Shown here in pieces: positions 35,266 to 49,766 of a stretch of DNA of 64,000 nt. Source of the DNA: Treponemataceae bacterium (GTDB taxonomy: Bacteria; Spirochaetota; Spirochaetia; Treponematales; Rectinemataceae). The notes beneath the pieces were generated by a model that saw only the letters and a program-made list of their open reading frames with translations, was not told where the DNA came from and did not search any database. The DNA lies in the NCBI GenBank assembly GCA_963667725.2, contig CAXXHO010000007.1, positions 1-64,000 on the forward strand, given 5' to 3'. The number at the start of each line of letters is the position of its first letter. The first letter of the stretch is position 1. Both the position numbers and the translations under genes were made by a program.

Positions 35266-36453
35266 ATGAAGCATGCAGGAAAGCGGATCTGGTTCAATAT
35301 CGCAGCCCGGGCGCTCACCATCCTGCCGCAGAAAGTCCCGACCCTGCTGACGGGCGCGGGCAGCCTCAAGCTAATCCCCTCCGAGCTCGAAGTGCTCGGC
35401 GCCAAAAAGCCCCTCATCGTCACCGACGCCGTCCTCGTAAAAACCGGGGTCGCCGCACGCGTGGCCGAGATACTCTCCGGAGCTGGCATTCCCTTTGCCG
35501 TATTTGACCAAATCCTTCCCGATCCCACCTACGAAATCTGCTCGCAGGGCCTCGCGGCCCTGCGAGCGAACGCCTGCGACGCGGTGATCGCCCTAGGCGG
35601 CGGCTCCGTGATCGACGCTGCCAAGCTCATCCGCATGGGCGCCACGCATCGCAAGAGCGTCGCCAAATTCGTCGGCCTGCTTCCCTTCCGCAACGGCGGG
35701 CTCCCCTTCATCTGCGTCCCCTCCACGGCGGGCACCGGCAGCGAGGCTACGGCCGCCGCCGTCATCACCGACGCGGCGCGCCACCGCAAGCAGACCATCC
35801 TCGACCCGCGGCTGCCCCCCAACACCGCGATCCTCGATCCCCTCATCACCACAGGCCTGCCGCCCGCCATGACCGCCGCCACCGGCATGGACGCCCTCAC
35901 GCACGCCGTCGAAGCGTATACGAACACCCTCCATTACTCCGACGTCGACGTCCAGGCGATCGAGGCGGTGCGGCTCATCTTCTCCAACCTGCGCGCCGCC
36001 TGTGCCGACGGCGGCAAGATCGAGGCCCGCGAAGCCATGCTCAGGGCCTCACACCTAGCCGGGCGCGCCTTCACCCGCGGATTCGTCGGCTACGTCCACG
36101 CGGTCGCGCATCGCTTCGGCGAACGCTACCACGTGCCGCACGGCCTCGCGAACGCCATCGCCCTGCCGTATTTCCTCGACCTCTACCGCGAGGCCTGCCC
36201 CGAACGCCTCGCCGACCTGGCCGCCGCCGCCGGCCTTCGCGACCGCGCCTCGGCCGCTCAAGCCTTCGTCGACGCGGTCCGCTCGCTCGCCGCGGACATC
36301 GGCATCCCCGCAAAGGCGACATTCCTCGCCGCGGGCGACATCCCCGCCATCGCCGCCGCCGCGCTCAAGGAGGCTCACGGCACGCCCTATCCCGTGCCCA
36401 TCGTCCTCGACGCCCCCGCGATCGAAGCCGTCATTCGCGCAATGCTGGCCTGA
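35266..36453 (+). CDS. Iron-containing alcohol dehydrogenase
   Basis: GGGSVIDAAK, GTGSE, DALTHAVE, HGLAN. Confidence 0.9.
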   Translation: MKHAGKRIWFNIAARALTILPQKVPTLLTGAGSLKLIPSELEVLGAKKPLIVTDAVLVKTGVAARVAEILSGAGIPFAVFDQILPDPTYEICSQGLAALRANACDAVIALGGGSVIDAAKLIRMGATHRKSVAKFVGLLPFRNGGLPFICVPSTAGTGSEATAAAVITDAARHRKQTILDPRLPPNTAILDPLITTGLPPAMTAATGMDALTHAVEAYTNTLHYSDVDVQAIEAVRLIFSNLRAACADGGKIEAREAMLRASHLAGRAFTRGFVGYVHAVAHRFGERYHVPHGLANAIALPYFLDLYREACPERLADLAAAAGLRDRASAAQAFVDAVRSLAADIGIPAKATFLAAGDIPAIAAAALKEAHGTPYPVPIVLDAPAIEAVIRAMLA

Positions 36454-36497
36454 AGCGCCGCCGTCGCGATGGCCGCTATAGCTAATCCAATTCGCAA

Positions 36498-36525
36498 TTG
36501 ACTTCCCCATCAATGAGGGTATGAT
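36498..36525 (+). promoter_or_regulatory. Candidate sigma70 promoter upstream of intI
   Basis: TTGACT-N16-TATGAT. Confidence 0.5.
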
Positions 36526-36699
36526 AAACACTGCGTTCAGAATGATCACAAAAGGTACGATCCGGCCCTTTTATTCTGTTTCGGCGAAGAAAGGAGCCGC
36601 GCACCGCCATACTCCCCGCTGAAGCCGACGCGCGCATTCCTCGCGTAATAGTCATATCCTTGTCCTTCCCCTGCAGGACCTCGCTGAGGAGATTGACCT

Positions 36700-37992
36700 A
36701 TGAATGTGTCCGTGTCGGCAGATGGAGACCTGTGGTTCGCCATATCGATGGAATATGACGAAGACATCGTCGCAGCCTTCAAGCGGATTCCCTGGCATCG
36801 ATGGGATCCCGATCGGAAGCTGTGGCTCTTCCCCAAAACGAAAGCCTCCCTCGACTTGGCGCGCGCGGCGCTGGACGACTCTGGACACCATATCTCTTCG
36901 CAGATCGATGCGCTGATGCCGGCTGGAGGCAAGCCGCCCGCCTTGATGCAGCCTCCCAGGAAGCTGGGTCCCGCGGACTTCTTTGAGGACGATTCGCAGC
37001 CTCTTGAGCCCTATAAGCCCGCGGCGCCCGATCAAAGCTCTCCATACATGCGGCGCTACCTGACTGCCCTGTGCGCTCGGCATTACAGCGATAGGACGAA
37101 GGAATCCTACTCGAAATGGCTGGCGCGGTTCATCGCCGCCAATAAAGGAAAAAACCCCGCCGCGATGGGCGGCCCCGATATAAACGCTTTTCTCAGCCAC
37201 CTGGCTGCCTGCGAAAACGTCAGCGCGTCGACGCAGAACCAAGCCCTTGCGGCGCTGCTATTCTTCTTTCGCAACATAATGAACAACCCCGTCGGCGACG
37301 TCGGCGAGGTTATCCGCGCTAAAAAGCCGAAGCGGCTCCCGGTCGTCATGAGCCGTCAGGAAGTCCGCGCAGTTCTTTCGGCGCTTTCGAGCGATAAATG
37401 GCTCATCGCATCGCTCATGTATGGCACAGGCCTTCGGCTCATGGAGTGCCTCGACCTTCGCGTACAGGATATCGACTTTGCGCAGAACGAAATCATTGTG
37501 CGCAACGGAAAAGGCGGCAAGGATCGGCGCACCATGCTTCCCGGGACGCTAAAGACCTCGCTGCAGGAACACCTCATCGCCGTAAAAGCCATTCACAACA
37601 AAGACCTCGCCGAAGGCTGGGGCCGCGTTCCCGTTCCGGAGGCTCTCGGGAAAAAATATCCCAACGCCGCATCCGAATGGGCATGGCAGTGGATATTCCC
37701 GCAGGAGCGGCGATGGAAGGATCCCCGCACCGGCAATCAAGGCCGCCATCACATGGACCCGAGCATCCTTCAAACAGCGGTTCATGAGGCGGTTATCAAA
37801 TCAGGCATCGCAAAGCGCGCGAGCTGCCACACGTTCCGGCATTCCTTCGCCACGCACCTGCTTGAAAATGGTTACGATATTCGCACGGTGCAAGAGCTTC
37901 TCGGCCACAGCGACGTAAAGACGACAATGATCTACACACATGTTCTGAACCGAGGCCCCAACGGCGTCCGCAGCCCCGCCGACGGCCTCTAG
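36700..37992 (+). CDS. intI: Integron integrase with ~110-aa N-terminal extension
   Basis: [25 protein letters not shown], IntI-specific insert [48 protein letters not shown]. Confidence 0.97.
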
Positions 37993-38139
37993 TTTGTCAA
38001 AAATTTACAGCGTCCCTGTCGAAAATCCTTACTAGTTGTATATGGTAATTTATATTTGTATGCCCCAAAAATACTTAACAATTCATCTCCATTTATCCTC
38101 GCTCTTATGTGGTTCAGTCTTCAATTAAACCTCTTCTCT

Positions 38140-38167
38140 TTATTGAACTGTCCAATAAATGTTAGAA
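38140..38167 (+). other. Probable attI site (crossover G|TT at 38161/38162)
   Basis: First cassette begins GTTAGAA here with no attC upstream; left limit uncertain. Confidence 0.65.
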
Positions 38168-38269
38168 CGACCTCATTCTATTGACTAGAGCCTTGCATAA
38201 TCTTGTTGCAGAATACTAAGCAACATTGCATGGCCATCATAAGAAAGATCATTTTTACATTACTGGACG

Positions 38270-38495
38270 GAAAAAAGTCTTGAGATGCCGCTCCAAGAAG
38301 CGCGCATTGGGCTTCTTGGAAAGTGGCGGCTAAGAGCTTCGCTGTAGGCAGTTCATCGGTCCCACCGCAGAAGCCTTATTGCTGTGAATAAAGATCAGTG
38401 ATTCGCAGAGAGCTGCCCACAGCGAAACGAAGAGGCCGCAAAGATCAAATAAGTAATAGCGCGCGAAGAGGAGCGGCAGAAGAGCGACTTTTTTC
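38270..38495 (+). ncRNA. Putative structured ncRNA in gene-less cassette 1 (38162-38698)
   Basis: Six nested helices found by eye; no conserved ORF; transcription unproven. Confidence 0.55.
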
Positions 38496-38579
38496 GCATT
38501 CAGAGTTGGCGAAGAGGCTCGCCAAGATTCAATATTGTGATGTTATCTTAGTGGCAGTTAGTAGCGCTAAAGTTGGCGA

Positions 38580-38704
38580 TTCTAACAACTGCTTCAACCT
38601 TATAAATCCTTTGTCATGGTTTGTGCAGGAACAACAATGCACAAACCACGCCAAGCCTTCACTAGCGCTCAGGCGCGGATTTAAAGGTTAAGCTAATGTT
38701 AGAA
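38580..38704 (+). repeat. attC 1
   Basis: TTCTAAC...GCTTCAACC...GGTTAAGC...GTTAGAA. Confidence 0.92.
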
Positions 38705-38806
38705 CGGCCTCATTCTATTGACCAGAGCCTTGCACGATCTTGTTGTAGAATACTAAACGAAATTGCACGGTCATCATAAGAAAGATTATTTTTACATTAC
38801 TGGACG

Positions 38807-39032
38807 GAAAAAAGTCTAGAGATGCCGCTCCAAGAAACGCGCATTGGGCTTCTTGGTAAGTGGCGGCTAAGAGCTTCGCTGTAGGCAGTTCATCGGTCCC
38901 ACCGCAGAAGCCTTATTGCTGGGAATAAAAACCAGTGATTCGCAGAGAGCTGCCCACAGCGAAGCGAAGAGGCCGCAAAGGGAAAAAGTAAAATAGCGCG
39001 CGAAGAGGAGCGGCAGAAGAGCGACTTTTTTC
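38807..39032 (+). ncRNA. Putative structured ncRNA in gene-less cassette 2 (38699-39235)
   Basis: Second copy with helices retained. Confidence 0.55.
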
Positions 39033-39116
39033 GCATTCCGAGTTGGCGAAGAGGCTCGCCACGATTACATAATGTGATTATATCTTTGTGGCGGTTAATA
39101 GCGCTAAAGCTGGCGA

Positions 39117-39241
39117 TTCTAACAAAAGCTTCAACCTTGTAAATCCTTTGGCATGGTTTGTGCAAGAACAACAATGCACAAACCACGCCAAGCCTGAGCT
39201 AGCGCTCAGGCGCGGATTTAAAGGTTAAGCAAATGTTAGAT
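39117..39241 (+). repeat. attC 2
   Basis: TTCTAAC...GTTAGAT. Confidence 0.92.
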
Positions 39242-39269
39242 TGACGCTTCGCGCAGAGGAGAAGAACAT

Positions 39270-39965
39270 ATGTTGAGTGACATTTCTAGCTTAAAATTGA
39301 ACCCGATTAGCAAATATGAGTTCGAGCGCCTACTTAAAGTTAATATGCCAGAATTATTGGATAGGTTTTCACAATCAAAAGATCTAATAATTAAAATGGC
39401 AGATATCGTGCTTGAGACTGTTGCGCATGCAGAATTTCAGGTTAAAAAAGAGGAACATGTTAATGAATGGTCAAGTATAATCAAAATATGGAATGTAATT
39501 GGATTCGTATTATTAGCATCGCTTGATCTGAAAATATATTTAGAGTTAATGTGTATGTCAAAAGATAATATGCAAAAGATAGCTATAACTAGAATGGTTT
39601 ATACTCAACTATATGAAATTGCCAAAAATTTAGACGATTTAACTAATATCAGGTTTGTTGAAGAAATGAAAAAAATAAATGCTAATCAATATATAGCTGA
39701 ACTATATGAAAAAAGAAAAATGCTTTCTGATTTAAAAAGGAGATATGAAAAAGACTTATTTAGTGTAAGAGTCAACATAGGAGCACATAGAGAAAAAAAC
39801 TATCAAGTTTTTCATCAGTATTTATGTAGTATGGACTATACTGCTTCAATTCAACTAGTATTTATGTTTAATGAAGTAATCGATGCATTAGGAGAGACTC
39901 TTCAAAAAATAATGAATCAATCAGTGGGATTTATTAAAGATACATATAATGGAAAAGAAATCTAA
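39270..39965 (+). CDS. Cassette 3: hypothetical protein with HEPN-like R-X5-H motif
   Basis: Helical-looking sequence, RVNIGAH; stop codon inside attC R''. Confidence 0.7.
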   Translation: MLSDISSLKLNPISKYEFERLLKVNMPELLDRFSQSKDLIIKMADIVLETVAHAEFQVKKEEHVNEWSSIIKIWNVIGFVLLASLDLKIYLELMCMSKDNMQKIAITRMVYTQLYEIAKNLDDLTNIRFVEEMKKINANQYIAELYEKRKMLSDLKRRYEKDLFSVRVNIGAHREKNYQVFHQYLCSMDYTASIQLVFMFNEVIDALGETLQKIMNQSVGFIKDTYNGKEI

Positions 39966-40083
39966 CAAATGCTTCAACCTTGTAAATCCTTTGTCATGGT
40001 TTGTGCAAGAACTCCCTTGCACAAACCATGACAAGCCTTCGCTTTGCTCAGGCGCGGATTTAAAGGTTAAGCTAATGTTAGGC
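39960..40083 (+). repeat. attC 3
   Basis: ATCTAAC...GTTAGGC. Confidence 0.92.
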
Positions 40084-40183
40084 AGACGCCTTCGGCGCCC
40101 GGGGCAAAGTTGAAATCGTATAAGTACCAAGGTCAAAAAAAATGTGCCTTGTATTTATAGAGTGCATAAGTAGCGAGAATAGA

Positions 40184-40942
40184 ATGAAACCAGTAAACGT
40201 AGTCAGAAAAGGAGAAGACAATAATAGCGTTTTTATTGCTTCAAATATAGGAGAATTGCTTTTGGATACTGGTGCAACATCATCACAAATTACTGAAAAA
40301 AGTGTACCATTGAATACAAAAATAGTTGGGGATATAAAATCTCACGGTTTCTTTGGCAAAAGCAGAACTATGAGAAATTCTACTGTTCCGATTTTATCTA
40401 TAGGCGATATAGTAAAGCAAAATGTACCAATGCAAATTGATATGTCGCTTAATGCCCATGGGATATTGGGAATGGATATTTTATCAGAGTATAAAGTATT
40501 CCTTGATATAAAAAATGGTATTGTATGCTTTGATTCAGAAAAAATATGCTCACAAGAAATGTATAAAGGTAATCGTAAAATGTATTGCCTTCCCATAGTA
40601 CTAAATGGCATTTCGTTATGGGGGCTATTAGATACAGGTGCAAGCGGAACAATAGTGAGCAAAACACTATTCAAAAAGTATCCTGAGTTTTTTGAATATG
40701 CAGGAAAAGATACAGCAAAAGATTGGACAGGAGCAGGTTTTTCGTGTGATTTAGTGACAATAAAGAATCTTATTGTAGGAGATTATAAGATTCCTGATCA
40801 TAAGGGAGCTATTCTAAATCTTTGGCCTTACAGATTCCTCATTGGGAAAGCTATTGAGTTTATAATTGGTGTAACAACATTAGAGAAGGGTAATTGGATT
40901 TTTGATTTTCCTAACTCGAAATGGGAATATATTGCGTATTGA
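40184..40942 (+). CDS. Cassette 4: retropepsin-like aspartic protease (two domains)
   Basis: LLDTGA twice, GILGMD, FIIG. Confidence 0.8.
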   Translation: MKPVNVVRKGEDNNSVFIASNIGELLLDTGATSSQITEKSVPLNTKIVGDIKSHGFFGKSRTMRNSTVPILSIGDIVKQNVPMQIDMSLNAHGILGMDILSEYKVFLDIKNGIVCFDSEKICSQEMYKGNRKMYCLPIVLNGISLWGLLDTGASGTIVSKTLFKKYPEFFEYAGKDTAKDWTGAGFSCDLVTIKNLIVGDYKIPDHKGAILNLWPYRFLIGKAIEFIIGVTTLEKGNWIFDFPNSKWEYIAY

Positions 40943-40963
40943 ATAAGGGCATAGGATAATTTT

Positions 40964-41087
40964 GCCTAACACCTGCTTCAACCTTATAAATCCTTTGGCA
41001 TGGTTCTAGCGAAAAGATCGCGCAAGAACCATGCCAAGCCTTCGCAGTAGCTCAGGCGCGGATTTACAGGTTAAGCTAATGTTCTAC
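40964..41087 (+). repeat. attC 4
   Basis: GCCTAAC...GTTCTAC. Confidence 0.9.
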
Positions 41088-41140
41088 GGACCCTCCGGGC
41101 GGGAAGAATATATATACCTAATCATAGATGATTAGAGTAA

Positions 41141-41626
41141 ATGAGGGATTTTATGGGAAGTATTTTTACAGTTGACAATTTCAAACTCGCAAGTTCTATT
41201 GTTTCTCCCTTTTTAGCTGCATATCTAGCATCGCATTGGGCATTAAAAAAACACTACAAAGAAAAATGGTGGGAAAGAAAAGAAATTGCATATAAAGACA
41301 TTATTGACTCATTATATGATCTTCTACAGTATTGTGAAATTGAAAAAGAAGACTATGAGCATAGATCAACAATACAGATAGATAAATTTAATGAACTTCA
41401 GGGGAAATACAATAATGCATATTGGAATATTAAGAAAAATACCATTATAGCTGAATATCTAGTTTCAAAAGATGCAGCAGCTGCTTTAAAAATATTGCAA
41501 AATCGCGAAAAGTTGAAATGGGACGAAAATCCTCCATGGGAAATATTCGAAGCAGAATATAATGCTTATCAGAAAGCACTTATGGAAATAATCCGTACTT
41601 CAAATATTGATTTGAAAAAGAAATAA
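41141..41626 (+). CDS. Cassette 5 ORF1: hypothetical protein with N-terminal hydrophobic helix
   Basis: 161-aa ORF, EKWWERKEIAY. Confidence 0.7.
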   Translation: MRDFMGSIFTVDNFKLASSIVSPFLAAYLASHWALKKHYKEKWWERKEIAYKDIIDSLYDLLQYCEIEKEDYEHRSTIQIDKFNELQGKYNNAYWNIKKNTIIAEYLVSKDAAAALKILQNREKLKWDENPPWEIFEAEYNAYQKALMEIIRTSNIDLKKK

Positions 41627-41729
41627 GTCAAATATATCAATATTGTGATTAGATTTAAGAACTTACAATAGCAAGAAGATATATATTGTGTGGTAAGGTT
41701 TAGAGTTAAATATTTTTTAAGGGGGAGAA

Positions 41730-41933
41730 ATGAATATCAAGGAAGGTTTTAGGAGATTATCGATTTTGATTGGTATTATTAGTACATTAGTTTTCTTTTT
41801 AGCTTTTGCTTCAAATAATGGAGAACAAATAGGTTTAGTAATTCTTGTTTCACTAGTGGTAGGGTTAGTTGCATCTGGAATCACTTTACTGATTGGTTAT
41901 GTCCTAGAAGGCTTTAAAAATAAAAATGCGTAG
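41730..41933 (+). CDS. Cassette 5 ORF2: small 2-TM protein
   Basis: RBS GGGGAG; two hydrophobic helices; stop in attC. Confidence 0.7.
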   Translation: MNIKEGFRRLSILIGIISTLVFFLAFASNNGEQIGLVILVSLVVGLVASGITLLIGYVLEGFKNKNA

Positions 41934-42053
41934 AACACATGCTTCAACCTTATAAATCCTTTGGCATGGTTTGTGCAGGAACAAAAATGCACAAACCACG
42001 CCAAGCCTTCACTTTGTTCAGGCACGGATTTAAAGGTTAAGCAAATGTTAGAT
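41930..42053 (+). repeat. attC 5
   Basis: GTAGAAC...GTTAGAT. Confidence 0.9.
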
Positions 42054-42110
42054 GGACGCCTTCGGCGCATATAAAATAAAAAAGTAAAAGCTGCCATTTT
42101 AAGGGTTACT

Positions 42111-42638
42111 ATGAAAATATTTACAAATAGATTGGAATTAAGAGAGTATTGTGAAAATGATCTAGAGCTGTTGCATAACTTTAGGATTGATAAAAATATT
42201 TCAAAGTATATTCATTGGAATGACCTAAGCCTTGAAGGTACGAGAAGTATTCTAAAAGAGGGGCTTGATGATCAAAAAGAAGAAAATAGAAAGTATTATC
42301 ATTTTGTAGTTTGCTTAATGCCGGATAATATCCCAATTGGAGAGATAGGTGTCAATATAAAAATTAGCAATATATATGGCGGCATTGGTATATTAGGCTA
42401 TTTTATGTTTAAAGAATATTGGCATAATGGGTATATGTCTGAAGCAGCGCATGGAATTATAGAATATATGTTTATTGAGCTTAAGTTACATAAAATAGAG
42501 GCATATGTTGATTATAAGAATAAAAGATCAATAAAGGTGTTAAAAAGATTAGGAATGAAGAAAGAAGCACAATTTAAAAAAGAAGTATTCGTTAACAATA
42601 GATGGGAAGATGTTGTTTATTATGCATTAGTAAAGTGA
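42111..42638 (+). CDS. Cassette 6: RimJ/RimL-type GNAT
   Basis: TNRLELR, YWHNGYMSEA, NKRSIKVLKRLGM. Confidence 0.88.
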   Translation: MKIFTNRLELREYCENDLELLHNFRIDKNISKYIHWNDLSLEGTRSILKEGLDDQKEENRKYYHFVVCLMPDNIPIGEIGVNIKISNIYGGIGILGYFMFKEYWHNGYMSEAAHGIIEYMFIELKLHKIEAYVDYKNKRSIKVLKRLGMKKEAQFKKEVFVNNRWEDVVYYALVK

Positions 42639-42667
42639 AATTGAGAAAATGAGATTGGGAAGCATTC

Positions 42668-42790
42668 ATCTAACAACTGCTTCAACCTTATAAATCCTTT
42701 GTCATGGTTTGTGCAAGAAAAAAGAGCACAAACCACGCCAAGCCTTCGCTTTGCTCAGGCGCGGATTTAAAGGTTAAGCTAATGTTAGAA
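42668..42790 (+). repeat. attC 6
   Basis: ATCTAAC...GTTAGAA. Confidence 0.92.
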
Positions 42791-42892
42791 CGACCTCATT
42801 CTATTGACTAGAGCCTTGCATGATCTTGTTGCAGAATACTAAGCAGAATTGCATGATTATCATAAGAAAGATCATTTTTACATTACTGGACG

Positions 42893-43117
42893 GAAAAAAG
42901 TCTTGAGATGCCGCTCCAAGAAGCGCGCATTGGGCTTCTTGGAAAGTGGCGGCTAAGAGCTTCGCTGTAGGCAGTTCATCGGTCCCACCGCAGAAGATTT
43001 CTCTCTGGGAATGAAACCAGTGATTCGCAGAGAGCTGCCCACAGCGAAGCGAAGAGGCCGCAAAGGGAAAAAGTAAAATAGCGCGCGAAGAGGAGCGGCA
43101 GAAGAGCGACTTTTTTC
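42893..43117 (+). ncRNA. Putative structured ncRNA in gene-less cassette 7 (42785-43319)
   Basis: Third copy with helices retained. Confidence 0.55.
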
Positions 43118-43201
43118 GCATTCAGAGTTGGCGAAGAGGCTCGCCAAGATTACGTAATGTGATTATATCTTTGTGGCGGTTGGTAGCGCTAAAGTTGGCG
43201 A

Positions 43202-43325
43202 TTCTAACAAAAGCTTCAACCTTATAAATCCTTTGTCATGGTTTGTGCAGAAATCCCATGCACAAACCACGCCAAGCCTTCGCAGTAGCTCAGGCGCGGA
43301 TTTAAAGGTTAAGCTAATGTTAGAT
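43202..43325 (+). repeat. attC 7
   Basis: TTCTAAC...GTTAGAT. Confidence 0.92.
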
Positions 43326-43956: not shown

Positions 43957-44096
43957 ATCTAACACATGCTTCAACCTGATAAAAACTTTGTCACGGTTTG
44001 TGCGATCGCGCGCCACTTCGTGGCTTCGCTCTTCACGCACAAACCGCGCCAAGCGCGAGTACGCGCCTGTTTTTACAGGTTAAGCCAATGTTAGCC
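43957..44096 (+). repeat. attC 8
   Basis: ATCTAAC...GTTAGCC. Confidence 0.9.
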
Positions 44097-44117
44097 ATAT
44101 TAAGTTAAAATCAAGGC

Positions 44118-44960
44118 GTGAACATGCAATTTGAACAATTATACAAATTATCAAGAAGGCCGAAGCTTTACGAGTTAGGCAACTCAATTATGTGGACGGA
44201 TCCGTATATATCAAAACAGCTTCTTGAATGTCATCTCAATCCAAATAATGATATGGCGAGTAGAAGTAATGATAAAATCAACCTTGTAATAGATTGGATT
44301 GAGCAACATACAAATAAAGAAAAAATGGATATTCTTGATCTTGGATGTGGTCCCGGACTTTATGCAGAAAAGTTCGCAAGCCATGGCCATAAAGTTTCTG
44401 GTGTAGACTTTTCAAGCAACTCTATAGCGTATGCGAAAAAAGCTACATTGCTGAACAAGACAAATATTAGCTATTACTGTAAGAACTACTTGGATATCGA
44501 TTTCAAAGAGGCTTTTGATCTAGTTATACTGATCTACCTTGATTTTTGTGTTCTTAATGTTCATGAACGTAAAGTAGTAATAGAAAATGTATATAGATCA
44601 CTAAGAGATGGCGGAGTCTTTATATTTGATGTAGTGAATAGCAACAACATAGAAGATAAAGTACTAAAACAATCATGGGATATAAGTAAAAAAGGCTTTT
44701 GGAGTGATAAGCCATATATTGTCATGAATAATGGCTATAATTATAAAGATGATAAAGTATTGCTAAACCAGCATATTGTCATTACGGAAGATGAGGCTGT
44801 AAAGACATATCATTTCTGGAGCATATATTATGATTATGAAGATATCGTTCCATCACTAAAAGACAGTCGTTATAAAAGTATTGAAAGTTATAATAACGTG
44901 CTTCCAAAGACTGATGCTTGGACAGGAGATAACATTTCATTCTATATAGCAAGGAAATAG
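44118..44960 (+). CDS. Cassette 9: class I SAM-dependent methyltransferase
   Basis: ILDLGCGPG, GVDFS, LRDGGVFIFD. Confidence 0.88.
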   Translation: MNMQFEQLYKLSRRPKLYELGNSIMWTDPYISKQLLECHLNPNNDMASRSNDKINLVIDWIEQHTNKEKMDILDLGCGPGLYAEKFASHGHKVSGVDFSSNSIAYAKKATLLNKTNISYYCKNYLDIDFKEAFDLVILIYLDFCVLNVHERKVVIENVYRSLRDGGVFIFDVVNSNNIEDKVLKQSWDISKKGFWSDKPYIVMNNGYNYKDDKVLLNQHIVITEDEAVKTYHFWSIYYDYEDIVPSLKDSRYKSIESYNNVLPKTDAWTGDNISFYIARK

Positions 44961-49026: not shown

Positions 49027-49152
49027 GTCTAACACCTGCTTCAACCTGATAATTGCTCTTGGCACAGTTCTTGCAGTCGCTACGCTCGGCAAGAACTGTG
49101 CCAATCCTTCGCTTCGCTCAGGCCGCAATTACAGGTTAAGCCAATGTTAGAT
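49027..49152 (+). repeat. attC 14
   Basis: GTCTAAC...GTTAGAT. Confidence 0.92.
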
Positions 49153-49209
49153 GGACGCCTTCGGCGCATATAAAATAAAAAAGTAAAAGCTGCCATTTTA
49201 AGGGTTACT

Positions 49210-49737
49210 ATGAAAATATTTACAAATAGATTGGAATTAAGAGAGTATTGTGAAAATGATCTAGAGCTGTTGCATAGCTTTAGGATTGATAAAAATATTT
49301 CAAAGTATATTCATTGGAATGACCTAAGCCTTGAAGGTACGAGAAGTATTCTAAAAGAGGGGCTTGATGATCAAAAAGAAGAAAATAGAAAGTATTATCA
49401 TTTTGTAGTTTGCTTAATGCCGGATAATATCCCAATTGGAGAGATAGGTGTCAATATAAAAATTAGCAATATATATGGCGGCATTGGTATATTAGGCTAT
49501 TTTATGTTTAAAGAATATTGGCATAATGGGTATATGTCTGAAGCAGCGCATGGAATTATAGAATATATGTTTATTGAGCTTAAGTTACATAAAATAGAAG
49601 CATATGTTGATTGTAAGAATAAAAGATCAATAAAGGTGTTAAAAAGATTAGGAATGAAGAAAGAAGCACAATTTAAAAAAGAAGTATTCGTTAACAATAG
49701 ATGGGAAGATGTTGTTTATTATGCATTAGTAAAGTGA
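49210..49737 (+). CDS. Cassette 15: GNAT, duplicate of cassette 6
   Basis: Differs at 2 aa from 42111-42638. Confidence 0.88.
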   Translation: MKIFTNRLELREYCENDLELLHSFRIDKNISKYIHWNDLSLEGTRSILKEGLDDQKEENRKYYHFVVCLMPDNIPIGEIGVNIKISNIYGGIGILGYFMFKEYWHNGYMSEAAHGIIEYMFIELKLHKIEAYVDCKNKRSIKVLKRLGMKKEAQFKKEVFVNNRWEDVVYYALVK

Positions 49738-49766
49738 AATTGAGAAAATAAGATCGGGAAGCATTC

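Follow-up and report, generated by a model that had tools for sequence, protein, structure and literature searches.

The window analyzed here, the 64,000 nucleotides (nt) at positions 1 to 64,000 of contig CAXXHO010000007.1 from a Treponemataceae bacterium (assembly GCA_963667725.2), carries an integron: an integrase gene, intI, an attI site, and a cassette array in which an attC-type repeat is found some 20 times, as far as 55 kb into the window. Slots 1, 2 and 7 after attI are occupied by copies of a gene-less cassette (Table 1), each of which contains a segment of 225–226 nt that folds into a rod with a large central bubble. Our best reading, drawn from sequence comparison, is that this cassette-restricted element, which lies outside Rfam and is under structural selection, represents a previously undescribed cassette-borne RNA-like family. 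The cassettes have attI and attC boundaries, a GTT crossover and an attC resembling those of their neighbours, and the bounds and numbering that a first-pass annotation of this DNA had assigned to them, together with the position of intI, proved correct. By pattern count, the host genome holds three integrases and more than 200 cassettes.

Over the body of the cassette, the three copies share 91.5–92.4% identity, in keeping with their earlier description as close copies lacking a common open reading frame (ORF); ORFs of at least 25 codons differ between the sequence types described below, and none is common to them. In each of the three copies a short antisense frame opens with ATG at an identical position (34, 48 and 106 codons); the homologues lack it. 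Within the rod, the copies differ at 21 columns, nine of them in the apex, eight in the 3′ strand of the bubble, two in other loops and two that break pairs; thus 17 of the 21 fall in the apex and 3′ bubble strand, where the differences had been said to concentrate. Cassette 2 is a mosaic whose apex matches copy 1 and whose 3′ bubble strand matches copy 7. Neither sequence searches nor our rod model (R1) found a further copy elsewhere in the host genome. Protein cassettes in the array, encoding a GNAT protein and a methyltransferase, are duplicated as well (42025–42640 and 49124–49740; 44076–44960 and from 52929), with 98–100% identity in a 300-base comparison, so that being duplicated does not set the rod cassette apart.

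The six helices, 20 × 19 bubble and 3′ hairpin proposed for copy 1 are all present in the sequence and in both its minimum free energy and centroid folds. Compared with shuffled controls, the rods of copies 1, 2 and 7 gave z scores of −6.07, −5.99 and −6.95, respectively, and none of the 200 shuffles made for each copy was as stable. Of the other parts described with these helices, neither the branched apex nor the 3′ hairpin of 7 bp is conserved beyond the window's sequence type, in which both are present. We rejected the idea that the rod is merely the cassette's paired ends, as it lies 109 and 91 nt inside them, and saw neither attC boxes nor a −35/−10 pair within it.

Searches by DNA similarity, by pattern and with model R1 uncovered 12 further distinct homologues, which brought the family to 15 distinct rods on 10 contigs, falling into three sequence types with 58–99% identity. 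Type A comprises the three window copies and one in G065 (83% identity in the rod), type B contains nine rods about 70% identical to type A (G010, L022, two in L025, L026, L027, L034, L036 and L045), and type C consists of a second copy in L027 and one in G050, 58–64% identical to the other rods. Duplicates (L018, L023, L028, L039 and L040) were excluded before counting, and true rods made up 4 of the 13 genome loci and 8 of the 20 metagenome loci that the pattern scans yielded, the remainder being dropped as coding or as an unrelated inverted-repeat element. Type C falls outside model R1, so more distant types may escape detection. All 15 rods lie inside gene-less cassettes, and none at a chromosomal locus; the rod starts 79–109 nt after the cassette start in every case and ends 88–97 nt before the attC start in 13, while of the other two one runs off its contig and one has a broken attC. 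In the G010 rod cassette, the attC is split by unrelated sequence (L010:1–60) lying a few bases ahead of the first box, perhaps an insertion element targeting attC. The unrelated inverted-repeat element, about 250 bp with long terminal inverted repeats (L030, L032, L037, L038 and L041), gave chance pattern matches, and model R1 matched none of its four tested loci.

The homologous cassettes come from records titled Treponemataceae and Treponema and from genomes of the window's family; the L022 and L025 records are titled Bacteroidales, yet show the same attC type. Several copies occur on three of the 10 contigs, each time including an adjacent pair and in one case type B beside type C. On all three contigs that show attI, two of them near-identical, a rod cassette occupies slot 1, whereas in G065 it is the last of the array and is followed by a convergent gene. 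Rod cassettes have no constant protein neighbour, and their positions (slots 1, 2 and 7 in the window, and differing neighbours across the 10 contigs) indicate mobility. The cassette is rare (4 of 69 family genomes), and no rod locus outside a cassette was seen in the host genome or the 69 family genomes, among the candidates scored. Outside the family, none was found among 401, 301, 151 and 151 genomes searched. Among the 15 candidates scored in each genome, model R1 recovered only G065 in 151 genomes of the order and only the window genome (G000) in 151 of the phylum, and a type C query recovered only G050 in 301 genomes. Three viral contig sets gave 0, 0 and 2 pattern matches, the two being rejected by model R1, and phage and plasmid records gave no match to the rod. 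A 24-bp match in G347 and 11 short matches from wider searches were taken as chance. Rfam returned no match in the window at the gathering threshold and only chance-level matches at E ≤ 10. We found no description of this rod in cassettes in the literature, most subscription papers and supplementary motif tables being outside the scope of that search.

Support for selection on the fold came from alignment of the family. Eleven of the 15 rods were aligned by sequence only, with no fitting to structure; here 14 of the 42 pairs have changes on both sides, and pairing is kept in 98.5% of 458 cells, compared with 37–52% of cells in slid controls; a further measure, of pair types, was not above shuffles (404 of 500). 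In the model-fitted alignment of all 15 rods, 20 of 44 pairs show both-side changes, some of which stem from slipped registers in type C. The both-side changes sit on few branches and may amount to some dozen events rather than 41. The rod is also more conserved than its surroundings: between copy 1 and G065 its identity is 83% against 68 and 69% in the flanks, and between copy 1 and L022 it is 71% against 57 and 59%, with a shuffled baseline of 48%. Across the family, the drifting parts are the apex (54–76 nt, with no common fold), the 3′ hairpin, which is type-specific, and the flanks. Folded on their own, rods of types B and C gave z = −2.9, −4.1 and −6.0, and that of G065 gave z = −9.8. 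Because homologues exist, all in gene-less cassettes and with compensatory changes, the proposal of a mobilisable structured RNA is well supported by sequence as far as a mobilisable, structurally selected element is concerned, while its nature as a + strand RNA is the part we infer.

Conservation is tightest around the bubble, which measures 18–21/18–20 nt across the family. The two GC clamps that flank it have 11 pairs, eight of which are invariant, while the outer helices covary; a 5 × 5 purine loop lies beyond each clamp, and 56 of the 60 loop strands contain AAGA. The two arms next to the bubble are similar to one another when read as direct repeats (p < 0.05 for 14 of the 15 rods, compared with 0 of 16 true 6S RNAs, under a shuffle preserving paired and unpaired classes), in a test that was designed after the pattern had been seen, on mutually related rods, and in which 9 of 25 6S loci were unparsable. 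In 10 of the 15 rods the two bubble strands themselves resemble each other, through shared words that differ between type B and G065; they are not alike in the window copies (p = 0.67–0.94) or in type C (p = 0.10 and 0.28). Together, the invariant clamps, AAGA loops and arm symmetry point to the rod's centre as the site of a protein contact, which would be sequence-specific. The loop segments, with bounds set approximately, matched the host genome at chance level and thus offer no obvious antisense target. A likeness of the type B bubble word to the cassette 3′ end was set aside, as it fails in types A and C.

Table 1. Integron platform, rod cassettes and rod parts in the window (strand and positions of the 64,000-nt stretch).
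Feature	Position	Strand	Basis or remark
Sigma70-like promoter candidate	36498..36525	+	Upstream of intI, towards array; 10/12 positions; sole promoter-like match in 36450–38170; 1.0 expected by chance
IntI integron integrase	36700..37992	+	430 amino acids; Pfam Phage_integrase (E 1e-35) and Phage_int_SAM_4; co-directional with array, towards attI
attI end	38142..38167	+	Crossover G/TTAGAA at 38161/38162; identical attI-to-cassette junction in G010 and L045
Gene-less cassette 1	38162..38698	+	Sequence, copy comparison
−10-like hexamer	38256..38261	+	Weak; 8 nt before rod; no −35; position not conserved across types
Conserved rod, copy 1	38270..38495	+	Folds, covariation, model R1 (222 bits)
Closing helices, copy 1	38270–79/38486–95 and 38286–94/38470–78	+	Fold
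5 × 5 purine loop, copy 1	38295..38299, partner 38465–38469	+	AAGA loop
GC clamps, copy 1	38300–05/38459–64 and 38326–31/38434–39	+	Fold, covariation analysis
Central bubble 5′ strand, copy 1	38306..38325	+	Folds
Second purine loop, copy 1	38332–35/38429–33	+	AAGA loop
Apical helix, copy 1	38336–54/38410–28	+	Fold
Variable apex, copy 1	38355..38409	+	54–76 nt across family; no common fold
Central bubble 3′ strand, copy 1	38440..38458	+	Block of 8 differences, copy 1 vs copies 2/7
3′ hairpin, copy 1	38506..38525	+	Small core motif recurs in 12/15 cassettes, at two distances
attC of cassette 1	38580..38704	+	Sequence; repeat comparison
Gene-less cassette 2	38699..39235	+	Rod 38807–39032; mosaic
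Gene-less cassette 7	42785..43319	+	Rod 42893–43117

We next considered which strand and molecule the fold serves. Folding energy does not discriminate the strands, the minus strand of copy 1 giving z = −7.26. The earlier statement that G–T pairs favour the + strand holds in direction, with 25 G–U cells against 8 A·C cells, but each kind occupies six columns, which makes the bias modest. Unpaired bases on the + strand are 43% A, and the loops are purine-rich on the top strand. On this sequence evidence, a + strand RNA, not DNA, is the likely form. As for its transcription, a promoter scan of the window gave no promoter-like site ahead of the rod, and the rod cassette has no conserved terminator of its own, the rod ending in a U-rich run. 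We saw no + strand terminator-like site between the promoter candidate upstream of intI and attI, which allows read-through into the array, the promoter-like site itself being at chance level.

From these observations we propose that the cassette, whose integron anatomy is observed, would serve as a small non-coding RNA gene moved by IntI like any other cassette. In slot 1 or 2, transcription on the + strand would either reach it as read-through from the platform or begin at a weak start inside the cassette, and the RNA would fold into the 225–250-nt rod that covariation supports. Its working surface would be the centre, with the open bubble of about 20 × 20 nt, the two invariant GC clamps and the AAGA/AAGA loops, and it would titrate a protein in trans, extra copies and front slots raising the dose. 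The protein could be the RNA polymerase holoenzyme, which would mistake the rod for an open promoter. We hold it probable that the cargo is RNA, and lean, with less assurance, towards a protein decoy acting in trans. That its target is the polymerase, making it a 6S analogue of separate origin, is a tentative suggestion; we rank polymerase as the leading target, with a homodimeric protein close behind. Speculative too, if by a shade less so, is the wider picture of an RNA-only adaptive module, that is, a protein decoy of independent origin, either mobile and imitating an open promoter or forming a symmetric trap for a dimer of phage or host; its dose would depend on shuffling by the integrase and on duplication, and its variant bubble strands would stand side by side.

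Several observations weigh against this proposal. The 15 rods represent about four lineages, so the counts overstate independent events, and the contrast between rod and flanks is gone in comparisons with type C (58–59% vs. 51–65%). A conserved promoter is absent, an extended −10 lying 6 nt before the rod in only 3 of 15 cassettes. No discrete transcript was found: in the four RNA runs examined out of 22, coverage was almost entirely of attC, one run had a single contig on part of the rod, and contigs cannot show transcript ends or strand. That contig, from run X10 (depth 7.6), includes both an attC end and a rod like that of G065 and breaks off close to where the 3′ hairpin ends, but is possibly DNA and was not counted as evidence. 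Other gene-less cassettes in the host genome are also multi-copy, and since the other two integrons have repeated gene-less cassettes of their own, copy number is weak evidence for dose. With respect to 6S RNA (RF00013), model R1 matches none of 29 (25 + 4) 6S loci, and the RF00013 model is equally silent. Alignment of the rod to Escherichia coli 6S gives z ≤ 1.3, whereas the latter scores 1.3–4.3 against spirochaetal 6S. The bubble exceeds the 6S medians of 15/13 nt and the apical domain spans 113–138 nt against 74 nt, medians that derive from 17 of 25 spirochaetal loci, one of them mis-parsed. The two-fold symmetry is absent from 6S and not needed by an asymmetric enzyme, and a 6S-shaped RNA, Str11, is reported to have failed to bind polymerase (PMC9130861).

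Repeated gene-less cassettes are a general feature of this genome, in that each of its three integrons has its own family. At G000:C5 470289–487779, a gene-less cassette of 364–367 bp is present six times. It contains a long hairpin (z = −3.6 to −8.6 for the three copies that were folded), whose closing inverted repeat is GTTAG/CTAAC-like and resembles a second recombination-box pair within the cassette. A 274-bp, purine-rich gene-less cassette occurs in 12 copies at G000:C5 434352–543821, some of them in tandem, and at C3 1653916–1654064; no significant fold was detected in the three copies examined (z = 0.2–0.8). A third repeated gene-less cassette has five copies at G000:C1 8704–34236 and is the first after the intI of that integron.

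The arm symmetry bears most directly on an alternative in which the rod is a symmetric RNA sponge for a two-fold-symmetric protein, such as a dimeric nuclease, a sensor belonging to a defence system or an RNA-binding protein from a phage, with one site per half of the core and with variant bubble strands across copies widening the range of proteins bound. The likeness of the arms, seen in nearly all rods and in no 6S RNA parsed, raises this reading, as do the bubble strands that resemble each other in 10 rods with words that change between type B and G065, the invariance of the clamps amid covarying outer helices, and the report that first-slot cassettes can be anti-phage in Vibrio (10.1101/2024.07.02.601686). 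It is held back by the dissimilar bubble strands of the window copies and type C, by a test window picked after the pattern was seen among related rods, and by the lack of a partner gene travelling with the cassette and of matches in the viral contigs, phages and plasmids searched; we judge it only slightly less likely than the tentative polymerase reading. An AbiF-type antitoxin RNA was also considered and rejected, there being no linked toxin gene. A different possibility is that the rod acts in cis within the array transcript, as an RNA-only antiterminator or stabiliser by which downstream cassettes would have their expression prolonged or protected, in a role like that of put and EAR. RNA-only antiterminators exist, put being about 65 nt with two hairpins (PMC8632103), and the rod is always sense to the array, holds slot 1 wherever attI is visible as well as mid-array slots, and brings no conserved promoter or terminator of its own. 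However, its closing helix requires all 225 nt to be transcribed, the cassette in G065 has only a convergent gene after it, and the U-rich run at the rod end could equally stop transcription, which leaves a cis role improbable.

The fold could instead operate as single-stranded DNA that benefits the cassette itself, through folding, excision or priming on the excised circle, and so mark a selfish cassette. Both strands do fold, covariation methods also detect structures of single-stranded DNA and cannot separate them from RNA (PMC5737381), copies are found in tandem and as mosaics, and one-sided G–U and A·C changes fall in equal numbers of columns (six and six). Against this, G–U cells are the more numerous and the purine-rich loops lie on the top strand, whereas the integron integrase works on the bottom strand; the rod shows no attC boxes or −35/−10 pair, and the cassette is rare in its family. 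We consider this explanation a little less probable even than a role in cis. Least probable of all, in our view, is that the cassette is a promoter donor whose inverted repeat is a relic of a MITE (a miniature transposable element with inverted repeats) or insertion sequence (IS), or an orphan IS110 bridge RNA. Gene-less cassettes of Vibrio and Treponema commonly have promoter activity, the flanks are AT-rich, three of the 15 cassettes have the extended −10, and the host genome has one IS110 gene. Compensatory pairs and conserved loops are nonetheless unexplained by promoter function, and the rod keeps a fixed position in its cassette. No copy lies outside cassettes in the genome, nor did we see linkage to a transposase with variable guide loops. 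Near the IS110 gene, model R1 had no significant match (best E = 0.41), and the loops are conserved within types across hosts, not reprogrammed.

Returning to the proposed polymerase decoy, the resemblance to 6S that had been pointed out holds for the overall layout, a rod of about 200 nt with a closing stem, a central bubble and an apical stem broken by short loops (PMC8876501); the closing arm is 34–35 nt against a median of 39 in spirochaetal 6S, and the apical arm is 29–33 nt. Every membership test that was run, by Rfam model, motif, sequence similarity and locus, failed. RF00013 matched neither the rod at E ≤ 10 nor the host genome, with the limit that its sensitivity here is low: it has matches in 0 of 151 genomes of this order against 69 of 151 phylum genomes, and fails to find other known cases. 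Rod alignments exceeded z = 2 with only one of 25 spirochaetal 6S RNAs, whose bubble-edge motifs are absent from the rod, and the closing stem showed no significant likeness to E. coli 6S (z = 0.6 and −0.4). By these sequence comparisons the cassette RNA is not a 6S member, although by analogy it may still work like 6S.

The absence of RF00013 matches in the order could reflect either 6S loss or strong divergence in treponemes; a Borrelia 6S is known (PMC6041397). The slot after zapA is empty in the host genome. Between rny and an RRM gene, a conserved non-coding rod (G000:C3 ~453790–454005, minus strand; L012:1085–1330) is 73–99% identical in 17 other family genomes (z = −2.8), is G–U rich and shows some covariation, in an alignment of 14 real rows and one junk row. 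It has no Rfam match and no alignment similarity to known 6S, is unrelated to the cassette rod, and is a candidate for either the divergent chromosomal 6S of the host or a leader of the RRM gene. A de novo rod scan of 1072 intergenic regions, noisy and retaining no more than the best rod of each of the first 505, was used as a lead only.

The tested role of gene-less cassettes has so far been mostly that of promoters, with one small-RNA precedent, whereas this family has a defined, covarying structure of 225–250 nt, found only in cassettes, within a 540-bp unit. Binding to RNA polymerase would make the rod a 6S analogue that moves horizontally, and trapping of another protein would make this an RNA-only defence or regulatory cassette. 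Either outcome would widen the known cargo of integrons, which may shuffle RNA genes besides protein genes, and an RNA-only module would mean that a cassette can regulate transcription or block phage without any protein.

Among known systems, 6S is a single-copy chromosomal gene at a conserved locus, while the rod is mobile, multi-copy and in cassettes in all 15 cases, and differs further in its large variable apex, its larger, symmetric bubble and its two-fold symmetry. Ms1 RNA of Actinobacteria is similarly long and bubble-containing, has extra domains and binds the polymerase core without detectable 6S sequence similarity (PMC9130861); Ms1 is chromosomal and syntenic, whereas the rod is not, and polymerase binding by the rod is hypothetical. 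The elements put and EAR are also structured and RNA-only and act on transcription, but are shorter or differently built (PMC8632103), and the rod has no Rfam match to either. ORF-less cassettes supply promoters in Vibrio (10.1101/2023.11.21.568050) and oral Treponema (PMC6557892); like the rod cassette, those of Vibrionaceae and Treponema lack ORFs, fall in the 490–670-bp size class and can take the first slot. In those cassettes promoters were measured, whereas in the rod cassette the conserved part is the fold and not a promoter; a text search of the Vibrio paper gave no mention of secondary structure. The closest precedent for RNA cargo is sRNA-Xcc1 of Xanthomonas, a trans-acting small RNA from an ORF-less integron cassette (PMC6557892, PMC8876359), from which the present family differs in belonging to another phylum and in being a long, covarying, cassette-only rod that matches no Rfam family.

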